Below are positions 1 to 29,360 of a stretch of DNA of 34,628 nt, in pieces. The stretch lies in the IMG/VR virus record IMGVR_UViG_2558860472_000005, positions 1-34,628 of that record; one strand, written 5' to 3'. The DNA comes from a virus (lineage: Duplodnaviria > Heunggongvirae > Uroviricota > Caudoviricetes). Position 1 is the first letter of the stretch, and every line of letters starts with the position of its first letter. Under the pieces are notes generated by a model. It made no database searches and had not been told where the DNA came from. It worked only from the letters and a program-made list of their open reading frames with translations. A program made the translations under genes and the position numbers.

Positions 1-720
1 TTATAATTTAGCAAGCTCGTCAATCAATTGTGGGTTCTTTGACATAAAAGCTACATATGAGCTTCCTATCGTAGTGAGTTTGTAACCAGCATCACTTTCA
101 TAAATGAGTTTATTGCTTACTGGATACGAAATATATTTGATCCAATCCCAATCTGCGAAAGCTTCTTTATTATGATTTTTTGTTTTTTCAAAGAACTGAA
201 TAGCATCTTCTTTGCGGATATAACCACCATTGCTAGCAATTGTATAAAATAAGTCATATTGTGAGCGGAATAATACCTTGTTTATTTCAAAGTATCTTAC
301 AGCACTTTGCAAAAGAGATATTTCTCGTGCCAATAAATCAATTTTAATTTCATTGTCAGTATCTAGATCAGATGCTTGTTTCAATATGATTTGATATAAT
401 TCTTCACTGAATTCAGTTTTAAATTGTTCATGGTGTATTCTTATAGCTTCAATGCTCGTATTCTTTTGTAAGCTCGCCAAATTAGAATTTGAAGATTCTA
501 ATACTTCTGCTGTTTGTTTCTCTGCTATGAATTTTGCCGATATACCCGATAAAGTCGCGGATATTTCTGATAGCGTATTTTTAGAAAAAAAAGAACTGAC
601 AACTTCAAAAATTCGAGTTCGGAATCTGAATCCGATGATAAGAACAACAACTGGCCATGCAATGCTTTTTATCAGTTCAACGATTAGTTTCGGTGACCAA
701 CTACATACTAAATCTTCCAT
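1..720 (-). CDS. Hypothetical membrane-anchored protein (AT-rich accessory gene next to integrase)
   Basis: Complete 239-aa ORF with stop at 1-3; N-terminal hydrophobic helix (IAWPVVVLIIGF); strongly AT-rich unlike the phage core; no family recognised. Confidence 0.5.
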   Translation of the reverse strand: MEDLVCSWSPKLIVELIKSIAWPVVVLIIGFRFRTRIFEVVSSFFSKNTLSEISATLSGISAKFIAEKQTAEVLESSNSNLASLQKNTSIEAIRIHHEQFKTEFSEELYQIILKQASDLDTDNEIKIDLLAREISLLQSAVRYFEINKVLFRSQYDLFYTIASNGGYIRKEDAIQFFEKTKNHNKEAFADWDWIKYISYPVSNKLIYESDAGYKLTTIGSSYVAFMSKNPQLIDELAKL

Positions 721-10885: not shown

Positions 10886-11257
10886 ATGCGTGATATTCAA
10901 ATGGTTCTTGAACGTTGGGGTGCATGGGTGGCAAATAATCACGAGGATGTCACTTGGTCGTCTATTGCTGCAGGATTTAAAGGACTAATCCCTTCAAAAG
11001 TAAAATCCCGCCCGCAATGTTGTGACGATGACGCGATGATCATTTGTGGGTGTATGGCTCGCCTGAAAAAGAACAACAGCGATTTGCACGATTTATTAGT
11101 GGATTACTATGTAGGAGGTATGACATTTATGGCGCTTGCCCGTAAACATGGGCGTTCTGATTGCTGGGTTGGGCGTTTATTGCAAAAAGCGGAAGGAGTA
11201 GTTGATGGTATGTTGATAATGCTAGATATTGAATTGGAAATGGAACGTAAAATTTAG
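10886..11257 (+). CDS. Late-gene antiterminator Q-like protein
   Basis: ATG 10886 with SD GGAGA; ERWGAWV and [21 protein letters not shown] motifs resemble Q family (from memory); immediately upstream of lysis region. Confidence 0.65.
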
Positions 11258-11486
11258 TTATGTTATGAATAAATAAATGCTAATGATTTTTGTAAGATAG
11301 CTCATTTTATGTCCATAGGTGATGTATGCATTAATATGATTAATTTGTCTCCTTATAAAAATAAGATTATGTAAATAATAACAAAGGGTGACATTATTAA
11401 GTGTTGCTTTTTCTTAGTAAGTTGTTATCCTACTTAAGGTTGAATGATATTGTATCGAATAAAGTTGCTTATATAGAATTATTTTT

Positions 11487-12014
11487 ATGTTATGGCTTAT
11501 TGAGTTAGTTAATAGGATGATTGAATCAATGCTTTCAAATGTAATTTTAAGTGGAGCTATGTCCACGTTATTGGCTGCATTTCTAATTTTTGTGTTTAAG
11601 GAGTATATAAAAAGGCCACCTAATTTTTCAGGGGTGTTTGAGATCGAGTGTAAAACGCTAAAATCATCATATAATTCATATGTAAACCTAACTACATTCT
11701 ATACATTAGTGTTGATTTGTGATAATAACACTATAGAAGGACATATTGAAAAAATAAAAGATATCGAAAATGATGGGTATGAAAGAAAATATATTGGCGT
11801 GCATCGCAATATTGGCGATGTCAATGGTGTAATTAAAAGAAATTACTTAAGACCTAACCATGCTTCGTTGAATATAAAAATGCATGGTGATAAGAGGGAT
11901 TATACTATTATGCTATATTTTAAGAAGGTGAATACGAAAAATATGAAAGGAACTTTTTTATCTACTGCTGCAGATTCTTCTGGAGATGTTAAGTGGCAGC
12001 GAAAAAATTTTTAA
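11487..12014 (+). CDS. Hypothetical membrane-anchored protein (AT-rich cargo, first gene of pair)
   Basis: 175 aa; N-terminal TM helix (VILSGAMSTLLAAFLIFVF); very AT-rich; 22-nt overlap with the next gene; no family recognised. Confidence 0.5.
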   Translation: MLWLIELVNRMIESMLSNVILSGAMSTLLAAFLIFVFKEYIKRPPNFSGVFEIECKTLKSSYNSYVNLTTFYTLVLICDNNTIEGHIEKIKDIENDGYERKYIGVHRNIGDVNGVIKRNYLRPNHASLNIKMHGDKRDYTIMLYFKKVNTKNMKGTFLSTAADSSGDVKWQRKNF

Positions 12015-12637
12015 TTTATTTACTGTCGTTGCCATATTTAATAATGGCTTCGATTATCATAAAGCTTAAAGTTAAAAGTATAATTGATGATTATGAGAAA
12101 TGTACTACTTATATTTACTGTAACTCGAAGAAATATAATAACATTTCTCCTGTTATGATTGATATATTAAGGTTAGCAGAGGATCATCGACAATTATTGC
12201 ATAGAGGGATTGACCCCATTGCAATCATTAGAACTTTTTATCTGAGGATATTTAAAAATATACACCAAGGAGCGAGCACTATAGAACAGCAGTTTGTGAG
12301 AACTATAACTAAAAGATACGAAAAAACAATACGTAGAAAGATAAGAGAGCAGATATTGGCTATATTGATTAGAAATGTATCAACTCCAGATGATATATGT
12401 AAGTGTTATCTTTCTTGTTGTTACTATGGCTATGGAACTTATGGGATAGATAATCTTTTAAAAAAGAAACAAAATATCAGTGATTTTGATATTGTTGCAA
12501 TGATTAAATATCCATTCAGGGGAGAAGTTGTTTCAGTTACAGAGGAACGATTTAAACATAGGTCGCTCTATCTTTCCACTTTATATAAATTAAATGCACA
12601 AAGGGATATGATTTTTTTGCGAAAATATAGTGGGTGA
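11993..12637 (+). CDS. GT51 (peptidoglycan glycosyltransferase/transglycosylase)-like domain protein, membrane-anchored
   Basis: 214 aa from GTG; hydrophobic N-terminus; four GT51 motifs in order and native-like spacing: EDHRQLLHRGID, GASTIEQQ, RRKIREQ, YLSCCYYGYGTYG; both putative catalytic Glu present. Confidence 0.7.
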   Translation: MAAKKFLIYLLSLPYLIMASIIIKLKVKSIIDDYEKCTTYIYCNSKKYNNISPVMIDILRLAEDHRQLLHRGIDPIAIIRTFYLRIFKNIHQGASTIEQQFVRTITKRYEKTIRRKIREQILAILIRNVSTPDDICKCYLSCCYYGYGTYGIDNLLKKKQNISDFDIVAMIKYPFRGEVVSVTEERFKHRSLYLSTLYKLNAQRDMIFLRKYSG

Positions 12638-12834
12638 TTATGTTAAGTGTATTTTATTATGTGTCAAAAAGTTTAGTCATCTCTGCTTAATGTATAATCG
12701 TGAATGTTTTTATTCAGATTTTATGCATGTCAAGTTGATGAGTGCCGTCGACATAAGATATGGGGATAATGAATAGTTTACAATCGTAAATAATAGAATA
12801 TCCTGTTAAAAGTGGTTACTTCTCCACGCAGCTT

Positions 12835-12865
12835 AAACCCGCCGTCGAGCGGGTTTTGTCGTTTC
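12835..12865 (+). terminator. Rho-independent terminator upstream of holin (tR-prime-like)
   Basis: Stem AAACCCGC / GCGGGTTT with 6-nt loop followed by a T-rich tract; about 145 bp upstream of the holin start. Confidence 0.45.
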
Positions 12866-13008: not shown

Positions 13009-13335
13009 ATGCCTCATAACCCAAATACCTGGCTGGAGTTGGTCCAGAGCTGGTGGCGTGGAGACACACCGCTGGGCGCAGTGATTATGTCGATCGTTAT
13101 GGCTGGTTTACGTATTGCCTATTTTGGCGGCGGTGGCGGATGGAAACGAAAAACACTCGAAATTTTGCTCTGTGGCGCTCTGACGCTGACATTTGCATCC
13201 GCTCTTGAGTATGTCGGATGGCCTAAATCACTTTCTGTTGCCATTGGTGGTGGTGTTGGGCTGATCGGTGTCGATGCTATTCGTGGGGCAGCAATGCGAG
13301 TAATCGGTAACAAATTTGGTAGCTCGAAGGAGTAA
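13009..13335 (+). CDS. S: Holin (lambda S family)
   Basis: 108 aa; three hydrophobic segments and charged C-terminus; directly upstream of an R-like endolysin. Confidence 0.85.
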   Translation: MPHNPNTWLELVQSWWRGDTPLGAVIMSIVMAGLRIAYFGGGGGWKRKTLEILLCGALTLTFASALEYVGWPKSLSVAIGGGVGLIGVDAIRGAAMRVIGNKFGSSKE

Positions 13336-13338
13336 TTT

Positions 13339-13815
13339 ATGCAGGCACTAAATTCCCAGCGTAAAGCTTTCCTTGATATGGTGGCATGGTCAGAAGGAAC
13401 GGATAACGGGCGACAACCGACACGTAACCACGGTTATGACGTTATTGTTGGTGGTGAACTGTTTACTGATTACTCCGATCATCCTCGCAAACTTGTCACG
13501 CTAAACCCCAAACTCAAATCAACAGCCGCCGGACGTTACCAGCTTCTTTCACGTTGGTGGGATGCTTACCGTAAACAGCTTGGTTTGAAAGACTTCTCCC
13601 CCAAAAGCCAGGACGCTGTGGCATTGCAGCAGATTAAAGAACGTGGCGCTTTACCGATGATTGATCGTGGTGATATTCGTCAGGCTATCGACCGTTGCAG
13701 CAATATCTGGGCTTCGTTGCCGGGCGCTGGTTACGGTCAGTATGAACATAAAATTGGTGACCTGATTGCCAGGTTTAAAGAGGTTGGCGGGGTGGTAAAT
13801 GAAGTTGAGCTATAA
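13339..13815 (+). CDS. R: Endolysin, lambda R-type lytic transglycosylase
   Basis: 158 aa; near-identical over most of its length to lambda R as recalled (NQRKAFLDM.AWSEGTDNGRQ.TRNHGYDVIVGGELFTDYSDHPRKLVTLNPKLKST...). Confidence 0.95.
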   Translation: MQALNSQRKAFLDMVAWSEGTDNGRQPTRNHGYDVIVGGELFTDYSDHPRKLVTLNPKLKSTAAGRYQLLSRWWDAYRKQLGLKDFSPKSQDAVALQQIKERGALPMIDRGDIRQAIDRCSNIWASLPGAGYGQYEHKIGDLIARFKEVGGVVNEVEL

Positions 13816-14260
13816 GCTAGTTATCGCTGCTTTCTTCGTTACTATTATTGGTTCTTTCATCTGGTCAGCGAATCATTACCACAATCAAGCCATTGAATAC
13901 AAAAAGCAGCGCGACGAAAACGCTATGGCATTACATTCGGCTATGGCGACGATCTCTGATATGCAGAAGCGTCAACGTGACGTAGCTGAACTTGACGCCA
14001 GATACACAAAGGAGCTTGCTGATGCTAACACGACTCTCGAAAGTCTCCGTACTGATGTCTCTGCTGGTCGTAAGCGCTTGCAATTCGCCGCCACCTGTGC
14101 AAAGTCAACGACCGGAGCCAGCGGCATGGGCTATGGAGAAAGTCCAAGACTTACAGCTGATGCTGAACTCAATTATTACCGCCTCCGAAGTGGGATCGAC
14201 AAGATAACTGCACAGGTTAACTACTTGCAGGAGTACATCAAGACACAGTGCCAGAAATGA
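13799..14260 (+). CDS. Rz: Rz i-spanin
   Basis: 153 aa; N-terminal TM anchor, coiled-coil body; strong similarity to lambda Rz (AVNHY...QRD.NA...DMQ.RQRDVA.LDA.YTKELADA). Confidence 0.9.
   Translation: MKLSYKLVIAAFFVTIIGSFIWSANHYHNQAIEYKKQRDENAMALHSAMATISDMQKRQRDVAELDARYTKELADANTTLESLRTDVSAGRKRLQFAATCAKSTTGASGMGYGESPRLTADAELNYYRLRSGIDKITAQVNYLQEYIKTQCQK
14022..14207 (+). CDS. Rz1: Rz1 o-spanin lipoprotein (embedded in Rz, alternate frame)
   Basis: ATG 14022 with SD AAGGAG; signal peptide with lipobox-like VSAC; proline-rich mature region (NSPPPVQSQRPEPAAW); nested in Rz as in lambda. Confidence 0.75.
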   Translation: MLTRLSKVSVLMSLLVVSACNSPPPVQSQRPEPAAWAMEKVQDLQLMLNSIITASEVGSTR

Positions 14261-14332
14261 ATCTATAGATGACACTCCACGTTCGTATAAGATAATGCTA
14301 AATTACTATTAGCTTAATCACAGGAGACGGAC

Positions 14333-15196
14333 ATGGAAAGAGGTGTGGTATTTAGTGCATGCGAATTACTTAAAACCGAGGATGGAAAAGGCATCCGTAC
14401 AGGTAAATGGATTAGTCAATTAGAAATAAACTATCTATGTCTTTATTGGGATAAACTAGTTTCACCCACTAATAATATTATACATACAGCATTAAATAAC
14501 GAGGATGAATTAGAAAAATGTGGATTGCTAACCAGACCGGTATATAGACATCATGGTTGTTTTGATGGCCAATATATGGCGGATTTTTATGCTGAAACTC
14601 ATGCCAAAACAATAGATATACTTAGGCATGCGGATTCTTCTGTCGATTGGCGCATGCATTTTTTAAGTGACCAAATAAACTTGGTGCCTGAATTATCTAG
14701 AACCTCAGAAGTGATACGTTTTGAGCTAGCAAATTTATTACCCGTTCCCACAGAAGATGTGCACCTACATGATATTCTTGATTTCAAGGAAAGAAGAAAA
14801 CCTGAATTAATCGCTTTACATGAATATCTTGATGAGCTTTACTTGGAAATAAAACGTTCTGGTGATATCAATCTTCAGAAAGCAAAAGCTCTTTCTAATC
14901 TTAAACAAGCAATAAAGGATATCGAACGCTTAAATTGTGAAGTGTGGAAAAGTCCAATAAAATTTAGCATCTCTACTTCTTTTGAGTTCGATTTTTCACA
15001 AATATTTAGTCTGGCGGGAACTGTTTTATCTATGTCAGTAGATTATCCTTATAATGTTATTGGAGGGGTAAGTAGTTTGGCTTGTTTTTTGGGAGGATGC
15101 ATAAAAATAAAGCCGCAATTTCAACAAGTGTTATCATTAGGTAATGATAAATTAGTTTACATAAGCAAAGGAAAATCGGAGGGTATTATTTCCTGA
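14333..15196 (+). CDS. Hypothetical protein (AT-rich cargo between lysis and packaging modules)
   Basis: 287 aa; AT-rich; hydrophobic C-terminal segment (FSLAGTVLSMSV...GGVSSLACFLGG); no family recognised. Confidence 0.5.
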   Translation: MERGVVFSACELLKTEDGKGIRTGKWISQLEINYLCLYWDKLVSPTNNIIHTALNNEDELEKCGLLTRPVYRHHGCFDGQYMADFYAETHAKTIDILRHADSSVDWRMHFLSDQINLVPELSRTSEVIRFELANLLPVPTEDVHLHDILDFKERRKPELIALHEYLDELYLEIKRSGDINLQKAKALSNLKQAIKDIERLNCEVWKSPIKFSISTSFEFDFSQIFSLAGTVLSMSVDYPYNVIGGVSSLACFLGGCIKIKPQFQQVLSLGNDKLVYISKGKSEGIIS

Positions 15197-15272
15197 TTTT
15201 TGATTCTCATAATCAATGAATGTTTTTTGTGAATATACTTATTTTAACCCTATAAATAATCAAGGTAATAAA

Positions 15273-15623
15273 GTGCCTCCTCGTATCCCGAAAGCCTGCC
15301 GTGCTCGAGGTTGCCGTAATACCACCACAGACCCGTCAGGCTACTGCGAAAGCCACAAAAGCGAAGGCTGGAAGCAATACAAGCCAGGCCAGTCCCGACA
15401 CCAGCGCGGTTATGGTTCGAAATGGGATGTTATCCGTGAACGTGTGCTCAAGCGTGACAAAGGCCTGTGTCAGTTGTGTTTGCGTGCCGGTGTGGTGCGT
15501 GAGGCGAAAACCGTTGACCACATCATCCCTAAAGCACATGGCGGCACTGATGCCGACAGTAATCTGCAGAGTCTGTGCTGGCCGTGTCATAAGGCGAAGA
15601 CGGCCCGTGAACGGTTGAAGTAA
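15273..15623 (+). CDS. Phage HNH endonuclease (terminase-associated)
   Basis: Zinc-finger/HNH motifs (CRARGC...C, DHIIPKAHGGTD, NLQSLCWPCH); probable GTG start at 15273 rather than the AT-rich ATG at 15216; sits before terminase small subunit. Confidence 0.75.
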   Translation: MPPRIPKACRARGCRNTTTDPSGYCESHKSEGWKQYKPGQSRHQRGYGSKWDVIRERVLKRDKGLCQLCLRAGVVREAKTVDHIIPKAHGGTDADSNLQSLCWPCHKAKTARERLK

Positions 15624-15709: not shown

Positions 15710-15748
15710 ATACCCGCGAAAAATGAAATTTAACCAGGAGTGCCGCAT

Positions 15749-16243
15749 ATGGCTGGAACGGCGGGGCGTTCCGGGCGTCGCCCCAAGCCAACGGCGCGCA
15801 AGGCGCTGGCCGGAAACCCCGGCAAGCGAGCCCTGAACAAAGATGAACCTGTTTTTACGCCCATCAAAGGTGTTGAGCCACCGGAGTGGTTCGCTGAAGA
15901 AGATCTCCCTCTCGCCACGATCATGTGGCAACTGACAACCAAAGAACTCTGCGGTCAGGGCCTGCTGTGCGTGACTGACTTGGCGGTACTTGAGCGGTGG
16001 TGCGTGGCCTACGAGTTCTGGCGACGTGCCGTGAAAAATATTGCCAGACAGGGCAACACCATCACCGGTGCAATGGGTGGCATGGTCAAAAATCCGGAGC
16101 TGACCGCCAAGAAAGAACAGGAGTCCGAGATGAGCAGCACGGGGGCAATGCTCGGACTCGACCCCAGCAGCCGCCAGCGTCTGATTGGCCTGGCGGGGCA
16201 GAAGAAAGCCACTAACCCGTTTCTGAAAATCATCGAATCATGA
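15749..16243 (+). CDS. Terminase small subunit
   Basis: ATG 15749 with SD AGGAG; 164 aa; directly precedes and overlaps large terminase; family assignment from memory. Confidence 0.8.
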
Positions 16244-17973
16244 GCCGGAAATCTTACCCCAACGTAAATGCTGCCAATCAGTATGCCCGTGATGTCGTGC
16301 GCGGAAAGATTGTGGCCTGCCAGTTTGTGATTCAGGCCTGCCAGCGCCATCTTGATGACCTGATGGCGGAAAAAAGTAAGTCGTTTCGTTACCGCTTCGA
16401 CAAGGACCTGGCTGAACGGGCCGCCAAATTTATTCAGCTGTTGCCGCACACCAAGGGTGAGTGGGCATTCAAGAGGATGCCCATCACGCTGGAGCCGTGG
16501 CAGCTCTTTGTGATCTGCTGTGCGTTTGGCTGGGTCAATAAAGGGTCCCGGCTGCGCCGCTTCCGGGAGGTGTATACCGAAATCCCCCGTAAGAACGGCA
16601 AATCGGCAATCTCTGCCGGTGTCGCCCTGTATTGTTTTGCCTGTGATAACGAGTTTGGCGCGGAAGTGTATTCCGGTGCCACGACAGAGAAACAGGCGTG
16701 GGAAGTCTTTCGTCCGGCGCGACTGATGTGTAAACGCACACCCATGCTTACGGAAGCGTTCGGGATTGAGGTTAACGCCTCAAACATGAATCGTCCGGAG
16801 GATGGCGCGCGGTTTGAACCGCTGATCGGTAACCCCGGTGATGGATCATCACCCCACTGTGCGGTGGTGGATGAATATCACGAGCACGCCACCGATGCGC
16901 TTTACACCACGATGCTTACCGGGATGGGGGCGCGACGTCAGCCACTGATGTGGGCCATTACTACTGCCGGGTACAACATTGAAGGGCCGTGCTACGACAA
17001 GCGGCGGGAAGTTATCGAGATGCTCAACGGCTCGGTACCCAACGATGAACTGTTCGGGATCATCTATACCGTTGACGAAGGTGACGAATGGACCGACCCG
17101 CAGGTGCTGGAAAAAGCCAATCCAAATATTGGGGTGTCGGTTTACCGTGAGTTTTTGTTAAGTCAGCAACAGCGTGCGAAAAATAACGCCCGTCTGGCAA
17201 ACGTCTTTAAAACAAAACACCTCAATATCTGGGTGTCGGCGCGTTCGGCGTATTTCAACCTGGTGAGCTGGCAGAGCTGCGAGGATAAATCACTTACCCT
17301 TGAGCAGTTCGAGGGGCAGCCGTGCATTCTGGCCTTTGACCTGGCGCGTAAGCTGGATATGAACAGCATGGCGCGACTTTATACCCGCGAGATTGACGGT
17401 AAAACGCATTACTACAGTGTGGCCCCGCGTTTCTGGGTACCGTATGACACGGTGTACAGCGTCGAGAAAAATGAAGATCGCCGGACCGCCGAACGCTTTC
17501 AGAAATGGGTGGAAATGGGCGTCCTGACCGTTACCGATGGTGCAGAGGTGGATTATCGCTACATCCTCGAAGAGGCCAAAGCGGCGAACAAAATCAGCCC
17601 GGTCAGCGAGTCACCCATCGACCCCTTCGGGGCGACCGGGCTCTCACATGACCTTGCTGATGAAGACCTGAATCCCGTCACTATCGTCCAGAACTTCACC
17701 AATATGTCCGATCCGATGAAAGAGCTGGAAGCAGCGATTGAATCGGGACGTTTTCATCATGACGGCAATCCCATCATGACCTGGTGTATCGGCAACGTGG
17801 TCGGCAAAAACATGCCGGGTAACGATGATGTGGTGAAACCCGTCAAAGAGCAGGCGGAAAACAAAATTGACGGTGCAGTTGCGCTGATTATGGCGGTTGG
17901 CAGAGCCATGCTGTACGAGAAAGAAGACACGCTGTCTGACCACATTGAGTCCTACGGGATCCGCTCGCTTTAA
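16240..17973 (+). CDS. Terminase large subunit
   Basis: 577 aa; ATPase region (PRKNGKS Walker A-like) and C-terminal nuclease region; position before portal. Confidence 0.9.
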
Positions 17974-25702: not shown

Positions 25703-27538
25703 ATGGCTGAATTTGAGCTTAAGGCGTTGATCACCGGTGTCGACAGGCTTTCTCCCGCGCTGTCGAAAATGCAAAAGAAAATCCGGGGATTTAAACGCCA
25801 GGCGGAAGAAGCGTCACAGGGTGGGCTGGCGCTTGGTGGCGGACTGGCAGCGGGGCTGACGCTTTCCCTGAAATCTTATGCCGATCAGGAAAACGCCGCT
25901 ACCGGGCTGAAAGTCGCCATGATGGATGCGAACGGCGAGGTTGGAAAGAGCTTTCAGGACATCAATAAACTGGCTATTGGCCTGGGTAACCAGCTACCCG
26001 GTACAACGGCTGATTTCCAGAACATGATGCAGATGCTGGTGCGTCAGGGGATCCCGGCAGAAAACATTCTGGGTGGTGTGGGTAAAGCGACAGCTTATCT
26101 TGCGGTACAACTGAAAAAAACACCGGAAGCGGCTGCCGAGTTTGCCGCAAAGATGCAGGATGCTACCGGAACGGCCTCAGAAGACATGATGGGGCTGTTC
26201 GACACAATTCAGAAGGCGTTTTATCTGGGCGTTGACGACACCAACATGCTGTCATTCTTCACTAAAACCAGCTCTGTTCTGAAGATGGTGAATAAGGACG
26301 GTCTTCAGGCTGCACAGAGTCTTGCCCCCATCAGTGTCATGATGGATCAGATGGGGATGAACGGGGAGTCGGCAGGTAATGCCCTGCGAAAAGTTATCCA
26401 GTCCGGATTAAGCGTTAAGAAAATCAGGGACGTCAATAAAATCATGGCCCGCCAGAAACTCGGGGTACAGCTCGATTTTACTGATGGCAAAGGGAGTTTT
26501 GGTGGTCTTGATAACATGTTTAAGCAACTGGCAAAGTTGCGAAAACTGACCGACGTTAAGCGAACAGGCGTACTTAAGGCAATATTTGGTGATGATGCCG
26601 AAACCCTTCAGGTGGTCAATGCACTAATCGATAAAGGAAAGGATGGCTACGATCAGATCCAGCAGAAGATGAATAAACAGGCCAGCCTGAATAAACGTGT
26701 TCAGGCACAGCTTGGTACGCTGTCCAACCTGTGGGAGGCAATGACGGGGACCGCAACTAACGGCCTTGCGGCTATTGGCGGCGCATTTTCTGGTGACGCC
26801 AAAAATATCACGCAATGGCTGGGGGAGTTGGGGGAAAATTTCACGAAGTTTGCGGATGAAAATCCCCGGGTTATTCGCGGCGTCGTCGGGCTTGCTGCCG
26901 GTCTTGCGGTTCTGAAACTGGGATTGATGGGCGTGGGCAGTGCCATCAGTATTGTCAGCAGGATTATGTCGATGACGCCGATTGGCGTGATTGCGACGGC
27001 GATAGCCCTGGCTGCGGGATTAATTATCACTAACTGGGATGTTGTCGGACCTTATTTCAAGAAGCTCTGGGAAACCATTAGTCCTTATTTTGAGGCTGGC
27101 TGGGAACTTCTGAAGAAGGTTTTTGCCTGGTCGCCGCTGGGGATGGTGATCAATAACTGGGGACCGGTTGTTAAGTGGTTTCAGGATATGTGGGATAAGC
27201 TGAAGCCGATTATTGAATGGTTTACCGACAGTTCCGGTGACACGGTCGATGCCATTAACTCGGCGCAGTGGGGCGCGGGTGCTTATGATGCTTATGGGAC
27301 GGGAATACCGGCGCGGGGATACACACCTTATCCGGCGGTAGATCTGGCTCAGGCAAACAACGCCTCCGATGCCACAGGCCCGAATCCCTTCATGATTAAC
27401 AAAGCTTCTGCGCCAAAAGTTGACGGTGAGATCAAGGTCTCTTTTGTGAATTCGCCTCCGGGTATGCGGGTTATGGAAACGCGATCCAGCGGTTTTGATA
27501 TGAATCACGATGTTGGCTATACGCATATTGGCAGATGA
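25703..27538 (+). CDS. Tail tape measure protein
   Basis: 611 aa; Ala/Gly-rich with hydrophobic central segments and C-terminal Trp-rich region; follows chaperones. Confidence 0.85.
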   Translation: MAEFELKALITGVDRLSPALSKMQKKIRGFKRQAEEASQGGLALGGGLAAGLTLSLKSYADQENAATGLKVAMMDANGEVGKSFQDINKLAIGLGNQLPGTTADFQNMMQMLVRQGIPAENILGGVGKATAYLAVQLKKTPEAAAEFAAKMQDATGTASEDMMGLFDTIQKAFYLGVDDTNMLSFFTKTSSVLKMVNKDGLQAAQSLAPISVMMDQMGMNGESAGNALRKVIQSGLSVKKIRDVNKIMARQKLGVQLDFTDGKGSFGGLDNMFKQLAKLRKLTDVKRTGVLKAIFGDDAETLQVVNALIDKGKDGYDQIQQKMNKQASLNKRVQAQLGTLSNLWEAMTGTATNGLAAIGGAFSGDAKNITQWLGELGENFTKFADENPRVIRGVVGLAAGLAVLKLGLMGVGSAISIVSRIMSMTPIGVIATAIALAAGLIITNWDVVGPYFKKLWETISPYFEAGWELLKKVFAWSPLGMVINNWGPVVKWFQDMWDKLKPIIEWFTDSSGDTVDAINSAQWGAGAYDAYGTGIPARGYTPYPAVDLAQANNASDATGPNPFMINKASAPKVDGEIKVSFVNSPPGMRVMETRSSGFDMNHDVGYTHIGR

Positions 27539-27590
27539 CGGAACCAGATATAATTTGTCTTTAAGTTTGTTATCAACTGAAGGGAAATCT

Positions 27591-27968
27591 ATGGGTCTGT
27601 TACATGCCATTATAGGTAATGCCGGTGAAATTAATGCATCAGATGCACAACAGGAATTAGGGGCTGTTTTAGGTGAGGGAGAAAATGTCGAACTTGCCTA
27701 TAAACTCATTCGTGACCAAATTATTCTGACTAACAGAAGGTTAATTTTTATTGATAAGCAGGGTGTCACAGGGAAAAAAGTAGAGTATCGTTCGATTCCT
27801 TATAAATCTGTGACAAACTTTTCTATTGAAACCGCCGGGCATCTTGATCTTGATGCTGAAATGAAGATCTGGATTTCTGGTATTGCAGAACCGATAAAAA
27901 AACAGTTCAGTAAAGGAGCAAACATTTATAAATTGCAGGCTCATCTGGCTCAAAAAATAGCAGGGTAA
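27591..27968 (+). CDS. Bacterial PH-domain (bPH_1/YjqA-like) protein, AT-rich cargo in tail operon
   Basis: 125 aa from ATG 27591 with SD AGGGA; LTNRRLIFIDKQGVTGKKVEYRSIPYKSVTNFSIETAG...LDLDAEMKIWISG matches bPH family (from memory); AT-rich; own terminator. Confidence 0.6.
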   Translation: MGLLHAIIGNAGEINASDAQQELGAVLGEGENVELAYKLIRDQIILTNRRLIFIDKQGVTGKKVEYRSIPYKSVTNFSIETAGHLDLDAEMKIWISGIAEPIKKQFSKGANIYKLQAHLAQKIAG

Positions 27969-27994
27969 ACCTTACATTAATTTATGTCTTTCAT

Positions 27995-28016
27995 GCCCAC
28001 TTCGGTGGGCTTTTTT
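27995..28016 (+). terminator. Rho-independent terminator after the PH-domain gene
   Basis: Stem GCCCAC / GTGGGC with TTCG loop followed by TTTTTT; lies just upstream of the next tail gene start. Confidence 0.6.
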
Positions 28017-28031
28017 ATATCCGGAGTTTAT

Positions 28032-29360
28032 ATGACGTGGAAAGACAGGCTTCAGGACGCGTCATTTCGCGGTGTGCCGTTTAAGGTTGAAGAAGAAAGT
28101 GCGGGAACAGGTCGCCGTGTGGAAACACACGAATATCCGAACCGCGACAAACCCTATACCGAAGATCTGGGAAAAGTCACTTTCCGCCCGTCCATCACGG
28201 CTTATGTGGTGGGCGATGACTGCTTTGACCAGCGCGATCGCCTGATTGACGCGCTGAATAAACCCGGTCCCGGCACGCTTGTCCATCCGACTTACGGTGA
28301 GCTGAAAGTCTGTGTTGACGGGGAAGTTCGGGTCAGCACATCGAAGAGTGAAGGGCGTATTGTCCGCTTTGACCTGAAGTTTGTCGAAGCGGGAGAACTC
28401 TCTTACCCCACTTCAGGTGTGGCGACGGCGCAGACGCTGATGTCATCCTGTTCTGCACTGGATGACTGCATCAGTGACAGTTTCAGTGGTTTCAGTATCG
28501 ATGGCGTGGCGGATTTTGTGCAGAACGACGTCGTCGGTAATGCCAGCACAATGCTTGGGTATGTTTCTGATGCGATGAAAGTGGTGGATTCTGTCGTATC
28601 GGATGCCGCCAGACTGTTGCAGGGGGATATCTCGGTACTTCTGCCTCCGCCATCGTCAGGCAAAAACTTCGTTGAGCAGGTGCAGAAAATGTGGCGTACC
28701 GGGAAACGCCTTTATGGTAACGCCAGCGACCTGGTCACCATGATCAAGACGCTTTCCGGTGTCAGCCTTGGCAGCGATCTGCAACCGCGCGGCGTCTGGA
28801 AAACGGTCAGTAAAACCACCGCCAAGGCTACGCAGCAGCGTAACGTGGTTGCCAGCACCCTTCGTACGACCGCAATCAGCGAAGCGGCGTATGCCATCAC
28901 CCGATTGCCTGCGCCAACAACTTCCGCGGTGATGCAGAATGCCGCAGTGGGGCAGTCAACAACACCCGCGCAGAGCACCGGCTGGCCTTCCGTCACGCAT
29001 CCGGCACTGAACAATGCACCGGCGGTGAAAAACACGGTTGACCTGCCAACGTGGGAAGAACTGACTGACATTCGCGACACACTGAATACGGCAATTGATA
29101 AGGAGTTGTCCCGTACAACCAGTGATGCGCTGTTTCTGGCACTGCGCCGGGTGAAAGCAGATCTGAATGCGGATATCAACACGCGCCTTGAACAGTCTGC
29201 ACGGATCATTCAGCGCACGCCGGATGAGGTCTTACCCGCGCTGGTGCTGGCGGCGACCTGGTTTGATAACGCGGCGCGTGACGCGGACATTATCCGGCGT
29301 AATGCCATTACGCATCCCGGCTTTGTGCCGGTGATCCCTCTGAAGGTGCCAGTGCAATGA
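28032..29360 (+). CDS. Mu N-like DNA circularisation protein
   Basis: ATG 28032 with SD GGAG (track start 27984 would include the terminator hairpin); follows tape measure as in Mu. Confidence 0.7.
   Translation: MTWKDRLQDASFRGVPFKVEEESAGTGRRVETHEYPNRDKPYTEDLGKVTFRPSITAYVVGDDCFDQRDRLIDALNKPGPGTLVHPTYGELKVCVDGEVRVSTSKSEGRIVRFDLKFVEAGELSYPTSGVATAQTLMSSCSALDDCISDSFSGFSIDGVADFVQNDVVGNASTMLGYVSDAMKVVDSVVSDAARLLQGDISVLLPPPSSGKNFVEQVQKMWRTGKRLYGNASDLVTMIKTLSGVSLGSDLQPRGVWKTVSKTTAKATQQRNVVASTLRTTAISEAAYAITRLPAPTTSAVMQNAAVGQSTTPAQSTGWPSVTHPALNNAPAVKNTVDLPTWEELTDIRDTLNTAIDKELSRTTSDALFLALRRVKADLNADINTRLEQSARIIQRTPDEVLPALVLAATWFDNAARDADIIRRNAITHPGFVPVIPLKVPVQ

Follow-up and report, generated by a model that had tools for sequence, protein, structure and literature searches.

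We analysed a window of 34,628 nucleotides, the whole stretch given as positions 1 to 34,628 of IMG/VR virus record IMGVR_UViG_2558860472_000005 (Caudoviricetes), with attention to a single AT-rich gene that lies between its lysis and packaging genes. The gene is a plus-strand coding sequence at 14333..15196 (stop codon included) with an ATG start and a 287-aa product, and Pfam (PF19749), PHROG 23128 and the RefSeq name all assign it to the DUF6236 family. The coordinates, low guanine-plus-cytosine (GC) content and location between a lysis cassette and a packaging module all agree with the original prediction made for this locus. On the left lie a lambda-type holin gene (13009-13335), a GH104/GH24-type endolysin gene (13339-13815) and, as the last lysis gene and left boundary, the Rz spanin gene (13799..14260, plus strand; Pfam Phage_lysis, E 3.9e-38). 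The right boundary is an HNH endonuclease gene (15273..15623, plus strand; Pfam HNH, E 3e-16), whose GTG start follows the RefSeq annotation in locus L001, and it is followed by the genes for a P27-type small terminase, TerS (15740-16243), and the large terminase, TerL (16240-17973). The host element is an e14/P27-like prophage. Its nearest annotated genome, Escherichia coli 30EVA1 (locus L001), carries such a prophage at tRNA-Thr, beside proA; its head is of the HK97 type and its contractile tail of the Mu type, and the homologues of ymfK, ymfL, ymfR and ymfQ annotated there identify it as an e14-type prophage.

The limits of the DNA that carries the gene could be read from six sister prophages (L002-L007) whose flanks are 88-97% identical to those of the window. 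In blastn comparisons, homology to these sisters ends at 14260 and restarts at 15271-15274, with the left breakpoints against L002 and L003 at 14250-14260; the Rz stop codon occupies 14258-14260. Because sister homology breaks at the Rz stop and resumes at the HNH start, the boundaries of the cargo cassette are exact: it spans 14261..15272 on the plus strand, about 1.0 kb, and consists of a 72-bp leader, the DUF6236 gene and a 76-bp trailer. The gene has a GC content of 0.344 (0.24 at third codon positions), compared with 0.504 for the whole window and 0.47-0.59 for the lysis, HNH and terminase genes on either side; the cassette forms a sharp trough of 0.32-0.36 between 0.47-0.51 on the lysis side and 0.54-0.59 on the HNH/terminase side.

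What occupies this interval in the sisters is variable. In L006 the slot is vacant, with Rz1 followed by the HNH gene after 27 bp; in L007, whose flanks are 94-97% identical, it holds an Iss/Bor gene on the opposite strand that matches the Bor profile (PF06291); L004 has a GrlR-like gene, and L002, L003 and L005 have orphan genes. Because the sisters leave the slot vacant or fill it in these ways, the Rz-HNH interval is a bor-type cargo slot, as had been proposed by analogy with the place of bor in lambda. At the scale of the species, 31 of 5,426 complete E. coli genomes carry the gene with at least 99% identity, in each case on the chromosome; matches to the lysis and packaging genes on its two sides occur in about 3,570 genomes. 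We consider it firmly established that the gene is presence/absence cargo, a single-gene accessory cassette of the type called a moron. The likeness to lambda Bor and E. coli Iss is one of setting, namely the same slot downstream of Rz, AT-rich composition and dispensability to the phage. The Bor/Iss gene runs on the opposite strand and specifies an outer-membrane lipoprotein of 97 aa, whereas the DUF6236 gene encodes 287 aa on the late-operon strand with no signal peptide, and we found no sequence or structural relationship between the two proteins.

An AT-rich insertion of this type could in principle be filler DNA in which a long open reading frame (ORF) is a decaying remnant or a product of chance, but 287 codons are very unlikely to arise by chance in DNA of 34% GC, and the frame is undamaged in 120 of the 121 homologous loci that we fetched, so that the frequent pseudogenes expected of a decaying gene were not seen. 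The near-identical E. coli copies (at least 99% identity) vary at 13 sites, by a synonymous change at 7 and a non-synonymous one at 6, which per site amounts to an excess of synonymous change, while the leader and trailer differ at 0-1 positions across the same copies. Since homologues form 88 clusters at 90% identity and 1,731 at 50% identity, with conserved motifs and almost no broken frames, it is firmly established that the ORF is a real gene under selection rather than a chance ORF, and family conservation effectively refutes the remnant or chance reading.

The original prediction had found no recognisable family for the product, and here it was mistaken. The protein is a full member of DUF6236: it matches PF19749 over aa 24-229 at 110 bits (E 1.8e-31; gathering threshold 26.2 bits) and PHROG 23128 over aa 1-285 on profile positions 1-288 of 288 (E 4.2e-142), and it is at least 99% identical to the copies in the 31 E. 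coli genomes, for which the RefSeq label is 'DUF6236 family protein' (WP_021556491-type). Of the 324 positions in the Pfam profile, the match extends over 74-268 only, which suggests that the enterobacterial phage proteins form a subfamily that lacks, or has diverged in, the N- and C-terminal portions of the Pfam model. To our knowledge, these family names carry no function. The 88 clusters came from a word-indexed search and are mostly Enterobacteriaceae proteins of 45-73% identity; Providencia, Pseudoalteromonas and Psychrobacter contribute distant members. The 1,731 came from an exhaustive profile search of 1.84 billion representatives at E<=1e-3 (399 of them at E<=1e-30), nearly all with products of 270-310 aa. 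All 42 divergent relatives that we examined match PF19749, and in every homologue with precomputed domains it is the sole domain, with no domain fusion among them. For the window protein itself, NCBIfam gave no match, and Pfam gave none besides DUF6236, the Bor profile included, nor was there homology to a structural or lysis-accessory protein. Against isolated phages, megablast returned nothing and tblastn returned four distant hypothetical proteins only. Faint matches to 2TM effector, glycine zipper and MafB models, each in a single member of the 42 (PADLOC and lenient Pfam searches), were discounted as evidence.

Alignments and structure prediction divide the protein into four parts, all encoded on the plus strand, over which the family-wide conserved residues are distributed. 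The N-terminal part is a predicted Rossmann-like alpha/beta domain (aa 1-143, 14333..14761) with the conserved residues G4, L37, W39, D40, P45, W106, P137 and P139 and the motifs LYWD..P, DW and LPVP. A long helical hairpin follows (aa 145-204, 14765..14944), which carries I148, L149, F151, K152, R155, D178 and E203 and includes ILEFKERR, the most conserved motif, then YLDELY and S-x-D. After an intervening strand in the AlphaFold2 layout comes a moderately hydrophobic stretch rich in Gly, Ala and Ser (aa 220-258, 14990..15106), in which two short hydrophobic stretches are split by DYPYN. The conserved C-terminal tail (aa 262-287, 15116..15193) contains the nearly invariant Y276 within K-L-x-Y-(L/I), corresponding to the C-terminal L-x-Y motif of the family alignments. 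The full-length AlphaFold2 model, built from 35 sequences, has a mean predicted local distance difference test score (pLDDT) of 69 and a predicted template modelling score (pTM) of 0.70, with good confidence over aa 1-220, and modelling of aa 1-143 alone raised these values to a pLDDT of 85.9 and a pTM of 0.81.

With remote-homology and structure searches run, the protein is placed in DUF6236 by profile and in a fold class by model, with no superfamily assigned. The N-terminal domain is predicted to be a Rossmann-like three-layer sandwich of the ligand-binding type, which is an assignment of fold class only. Foldseek against the PDB gave Csm6 (E 0.024) and Cad1 (probability 0.6) as the best matches and nothing at E 1e-3 or better, and a sequence-profile search of the PDB gave no match below E 0.26. 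The fold-level matches of the N-terminal domain include the CARF sensors Can1, Csm6 and Cam1, which act with effectors in type III CRISPR (clustered regularly interspaced short palindromic repeats) systems. The resemblance to them is one of fold class, at 7-14% identity, and enzymes and PIN domains score equally well or better. The DUF6236 protein has no CARF sequence motifs and we do not class it with the CARF proteins; the neighbour tallies contain no cyclic-oligonucleotide synthase near DUF6236 genes, and, as a further difference from Cam1, Csm6 and Can1, its hydrophobic segment is C-terminal and marginal. Two nuclease folds were rejected by eye, PIN because strand 1 ends without an acidic residue and PD-(D/E)xK because the ExK sits in a helix.

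The hydrophobic C-terminal segment described in the original prediction does exist and has a conserved position, but it is marginal as a membrane segment. In a 19-aa Kyte-Doolittle window the peak is 1.5 at aa 241-259, below the transmembrane threshold of about 1.6, and across the family the peak lies at a constant place (about aa 235-260) with a mean of 1.48. The segment may be a membrane-active hairpin, or it may be a buried or oligomerisation element. No signal peptide or lipobox was found at the N-terminus (MERGVVFSACELLK). Separately, the window allele differs from other E. coli copies at three adjacent codons within this segment, 249-251 (15077-15085), all by non-synonymous changes (L249F, A250S and C251Y in the other copies), with the remaining differences in the gene being mostly synonymous; the window allele raises the hydropathy peak from 1.25 to 1.5.

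The 72-bp leader contains the second conserved component of the cassette. An alignment of 11 leaders, from genes whose proteins are 45-72% identical, shares the block GATAATGCTAAATT (14291..14304, plus strand), a predicted promoter core that combines a -10 hexamer GATAAT (14291-14296) with an overlapping extended -10 of the form TG-c-TAAATT (TG at 14296-14297, hexamer TAAATT at 14299-14304). Within it, the columns that never vary are A, A and T in GATAAT together with TG, T and the last T in TG-c-TAAATT. In sigma-70 promoters with a -10 or extended -10 element, the A, A and T of the hexamer and the positions of TGnTATAAT are the key determinants. A -35-like ATGACA (14269..14274, plus strand) lies 16 nt upstream of GATAAT, and a consensus scan gave 10 of 12 matches; its support is weak and it is not conserved in the family. 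Downstream, a ribosome-binding site AGGAG (14322..14326, plus strand) was read from the sequence 6 nt before the ATG.

The motif TGnTAnnnT is present between -70 and -11 in 29 of 38 non-redundant phage-type loci, where 3.9 would be expected from composition-matched shuffles, and in 18 of the 27 loci outside the set that defined it, compared with 10 of 457 control ORFs (2.2%) from the same loci. The distance from its end to the start codon is 29-34 nt in 24 of the 29 loci. Upstream of 21 non-enterobacterial chromosomal copies it is not enriched (3 against 2.1 expected). From this conservation we infer that a predicted -10/extended -10 promoter travels with the gene in phages. The rest of the leader and the trailer are plain: Rfam detected no RNA family within the cassette, the RNA of 14305-14345 folds at -2.4 kcal/mol (z-score 0.57) and so appears unstructured, and the trailer (15197-15272) offers an A/T-only 6-bp hairpin followed by a T run and nothing more. 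In several related phages, the -35 region that immediately precedes the -10 block is overlapped by a perfect inverted repeat, CAGGCA-N9-TGCCTG (L078:1921-1941, with equivalents in L019 and L097). This repeat, which is missing from the leader of the window, could be a repressor operator and would then imply regulated expression in those phages.

Given its own conserved predicted promoter and a strong ribosome-binding site, the gene should be transcribable from a repressed prophage, and we think it probable that it is expressed in the lysogen. Transcription of its own in the lysogen together with late read-through is the defining behaviour of a moron, a concept that reportedly goes back to work on HK97 and lambda by Juhala, Hendrix and colleagues. 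The cassette resembles the lambdoid morons as an extra gene between conserved neighbours, with variable presence, a composition that deviates from its phage neighbours and its own predicted promoter. It differs from them in having no intrinsic terminator after the gene, and also in the joint conservation of promoter and gene across phages of several genera, which goes beyond the original definition.

This conservation of position was followed into more distant phages. Homologues 40-72% identical keep the slot and the orientation even where the lysis and terminase genes of the phage are unrelated. In Klebsiella (L011-L013, 47% identity) the gene follows holin_8, holin_3_7 and a GH108 endolysin and precedes an HNH gene and a P27-type terminase. 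The Providencia homologue (L014, 42%) stands behind a LydA-type holin, an M15 peptidase and LysC and ahead of Terminase_2/Terminase_6C, and the Salmonella homologue (L017 and L018, 48%) stands behind holin_8, holin_3_7 and a GH19 endolysin and ahead of Nu1/GpA. In Enterobacter (L015 and L016, 28-33%) a T4-type lysozyme lies upstream, with an integrase and then a portal gene downstream. In all four hosts the gene is directly behind the lysis cassette and co-oriented with it. The Enterobacter integrase (L015:8972-9976 and L016:8971-9975) is a tyrosine-recombinase gene (Phage_integrase) placed directly after the DUF6236 gene; between lysis and head modules it is oddly located and may belong to a nested mobile element or a recombination module.

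A wider set of 49 genome loci and 64 viral loci gave 87 non-redundant contexts, and for the 47 phage-type loci we tallied Pfam matches in the three nearest same-strand ORFs on each side. Upstream were the holins Phage_holin_3_7 (8), 3_1 (4), 2_1 (3), 2_3 (3), holin_8 (1) and 3_3 (1), the endolysins GH108 (7), GH19 (7), Phage_lysozyme (6) and M15_4 (2), and the spanin Rz (5). Downstream were HNH (8), GpA (6), TerL_ATPase (6), Terminase_4 (6), DUF1441 (4), DUF2280 (3), Terminase_6C (3), Nu1 (2) and Terminase_3 (2). The cassette is thus a portable unit, found behind at least four unrelated endolysin families and six holin families and ahead of at least five terminase types. Across 80 family loci in hosts of 35% to 65% GC, the gene has a lower GC content than its flanks in 77, by a mean difference of 0.10, which we read as a compositional signature of foreign DNA.

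A gene that so regularly follows lysis genes might be a late accessory of lysis or egress, co-transcribed with the holin, endolysin and spanin and either tuning the timing of lysis or acting at the envelope. All the enterobacterial and Providencia contexts examined place it immediately after spanin genes and in their orientation, 48-230 bp away; there is no terminator between it and the lysis genes or between it and the terminase genes, and its C-terminal segment is moderately hydrophobic. The diversity of its upstream neighbours nevertheless argues against such a role, since no single specific lysis partner is possible among so many unrelated endolysin and holin families, and the gene is also dispensable, as the vacant slot of L006 and the 31 carrier genomes against thousands with the flanks make clear. 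The conserved predicted promoter of its own, the missing signal peptide or lipobox and the lack of Pfam homology to known lysis proteins point the same way. Distant members, moreover, occur at the integrase/tail-fibre end of phages or in chromosomes without phage genes: one lies between the integrase and the tail fibre of Klebsiella phage Mulock and another at the extreme end of a Vibrio prophage. We therefore regard a lysis role as improbable.

Solitary chromosomal copies were found in Pseudoalteromonas, Psychrobacter, Marinobacter, Janthinobacterium, Sinorhizobium and other bacteria of marine, soil and sediment origin. At 40 such loci, the 124 nearest neighbours match 125 Pfam families, each seen at most three times; since no neighbour family recurs more often than this, the gene has no partner. 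With neither a partner nor a fusion, the DUF6236 gene is autonomous.

Our favoured reading, which we hold tentatively, is that the gene may protect the lysogen against other phages by superinfection exclusion or abortive infection. We favour it because the solitary, patchy and AT-rich distribution, the prophage cargo sites, the predicted promoter of its own and the sensor-like domain coupled to a hydrophobic segment are traits of conflict genes. Cargo slots of these phages do carry defence, since the slot between Q and the holin gene in sister prophage L001 is occupied by a Kiwa system (KwaA and KwaB). Under this reading, the moron cassette at 14261..15272, inserted where the lysis module of an e14/P27-like temperate phage meets its packaging module, would be transcribed from the repressed prophage through its own sigma-70 promoter and strong ribosome-binding site, and the Q-antiterminated late transcript would read through the gene as well. 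The product would be one cytoplasmic 287-aa DUF6236 protein acting without a partner. Its Rossmann-like N-terminal domain and conserved basic helical hairpin would sense a ligand or phage product, sensing would release or reorganise the Gly/Ala-rich hydrophobic C-terminal segment, and the freed segment would act on the inner membrane. This sensor-to-membrane mechanism is doubtful. A broader proposal, rather unlikely in its full form, would make DUF6236 a widespread family of single-protein anti-phage immunity, in which a CARF-like sensor and the basic hairpin detect a phage ligand or protein and a glycine-zipper-like C-terminus hits the inner membrane, and in which the enterobacterial branch is a portable promoter-plus-gene cassette that targets the lysis-packaging junction.

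Several results weigh against a role in protection or against parts of the route to it. PADLOC-DB v2.0.0 (2023) gave no match to the window protein at E up to 1, and the same database searched with the 42 divergent relatives gave isolated single-member matches only, at about E 0.01, to '2TM effector' models. Defence matches among the chromosomal neighbours consisted of one type IIG restriction-modification enzyme, one PD-Lambda-1 and a few PDC candidates, too few for enrichment, and no paper on DUF6236, PF19749, WP_021556491 or phrog_23128 turned up in the literature searched. The known occupants of the Rz-HNH slot, Bor/Iss and GrlR-like, are non-defence genes. As for the membrane step, the hydrophobic segment stays under the transmembrane threshold in most members, with 22 of 80 reaching 1.6, and AlphaFold2 gave pLDDT values below 50 for aa 223-255 and 270-287. 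As for expression, a generic sigma-70 -35/-10 scan found no family-wide enrichment, so that the promoter signal came solely from the conservation-based extended -10 analysis, and the intrinsic terminator that would complete a classical moron was not found in 15197-15272.

Some of these same points would suit a different role, in which the gene is a factor of lysogenic conversion or host physiology, i.e., a cytoplasmic enzyme or regulator that binds a nucleotide or cofactor and alters metabolism, the envelope or the stress response. Bor/Iss and the GrlR-like gene share its slot in sister prophages, no defence model matches, the fold matches are enzyme-like, and the conserved polar residues D40, D105, K152, R155, H163, D167, Y170, D178 and Y276 could form an active site. 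Yet no catalytic motif of any such enzyme family could be recognised, there is no Pfam or NCBIfam match past DUF6236, and no metabolic operon surrounds the gene. The presence of the family in marine, soil and sediment bacteria also argues against a virulence-specific role, and a single AT-rich gene with so patchy a distribution looks more like a conflict gene. On balance we consider such a function unlikely.

The mobility of the cassette likewise raises the prospect of selfish or counter-defence cargo, either a toxin-like addiction module or an anti-defence protein, for which a single AT-rich gene of patchy distribution that moves between phages and matches no defence model would be a reasonable form. 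Against it, no conserved antitoxin-like ORF adjoins the gene. Solitary chromosomal copies outside phages are hard to square with an anti-defence role, and anti-defence genes of lambdoid phages are typically early genes, unlike a gene placed behind the lysis cassette. We judge this possibility very improbable.

Returning to protection of the lysogen, our literature search on lambdoid hotspots yielded analogues only. The closest in genomic lifestyle are HepS of Gifsy-1 (PMC13043305), BstA (PMC8585504) and Lit of e14, each of which is one temperate-phage gene without a partner; Lit shares with the DUF6236 gene an e14-type prophage as its carrier. The resemblance is limited to that lifestyle, as the DUF6236 protein has no HEPN, BstA/KilA-N or Lit-protease homology, and HepS (PMC13043305) proved unrelated.

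The prophage contains other regions that look like cargo spots. A second AT-rich island, in the Q-holin slot at 11150-12800, has a GC content of 0.27-0.31, even lower than that of the DUF6236 cassette, and lies where L001 holds its complete Kiwa system. It encodes, on the plus strand, a 175-aa orphan (11487-12014) with no Pfam, PHROG, NCBIfam or PADLOC match and an overlapping 214-aa protein (11993-12637) with a peptidoglycan glycosyltransferase domain (GT51, PF00912; E 1.6e-23) that is unusual in a phage. Carried by 3 of the 5,426 E. coli genomes, the island may be a two-gene cargo or defence candidate. Between it and the holin gene lies a strong terminator-like hairpin (12835-12856, plus strand; AAACCCGC...GCGGGTTT) with a T-rich tail, resembling the tR'-type terminator that is overridden by Q antitermination. 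A third AT-rich spot, a 152-aa ORF at 27510-27968 (plus strand; GC 0.375 at 27601-28000), sits between the tape-measure gene (25703-27538) and the DNA-circularisation gene (27984-29360), a junction at which L001 has a different gene, annotated as 'OB-fold protein', on the opposite strand. At the left end of the window, positions 1-800 have a GC content of 0.31-0.35 and contain a 239-aa ORF (1..720, minus strand) immediately beyond the integrase gene (920-2104, also minus strand). The integrase of L001 adjoins tRNA-Thr instead, so the prophage of the window may have another integration site or an adjacent island.

Temperate-phage cargo genes are a main reservoir of undiscovered immunity and lysogenic-conversion functions. 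That this gene is annotated as a DUF6236 member was already known and the moron concept is old; what is new here is the delimitation of the cassette, its positional conservation across unrelated phage modules and its conserved predicted promoter. The gene offers a handle on a family as large as about 1,700 clusters at 50% identity, for which there is neither literature nor a solved structure nor an entry in the 2023 defence database. The handle is a precisely bounded unit, 14261..15272, with its promoter included, a set of conserved residues (D40, W39, W106, K152, R155, D178 and Y276), and natural isogenic controls in the form of sister prophages with the slot vacant or filled by iss. It is reasonable to regard the cassette as an unproven candidate for a new anti-phage gene of the single-protein type. 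If that proves true, it would be a new single-protein defence system on a cassette that keeps its own promoter across unrelated lysis and packaging modules; if the function is not defence, it would still be a well-delimited moron with which to study the regulation of prophage accessory genes.

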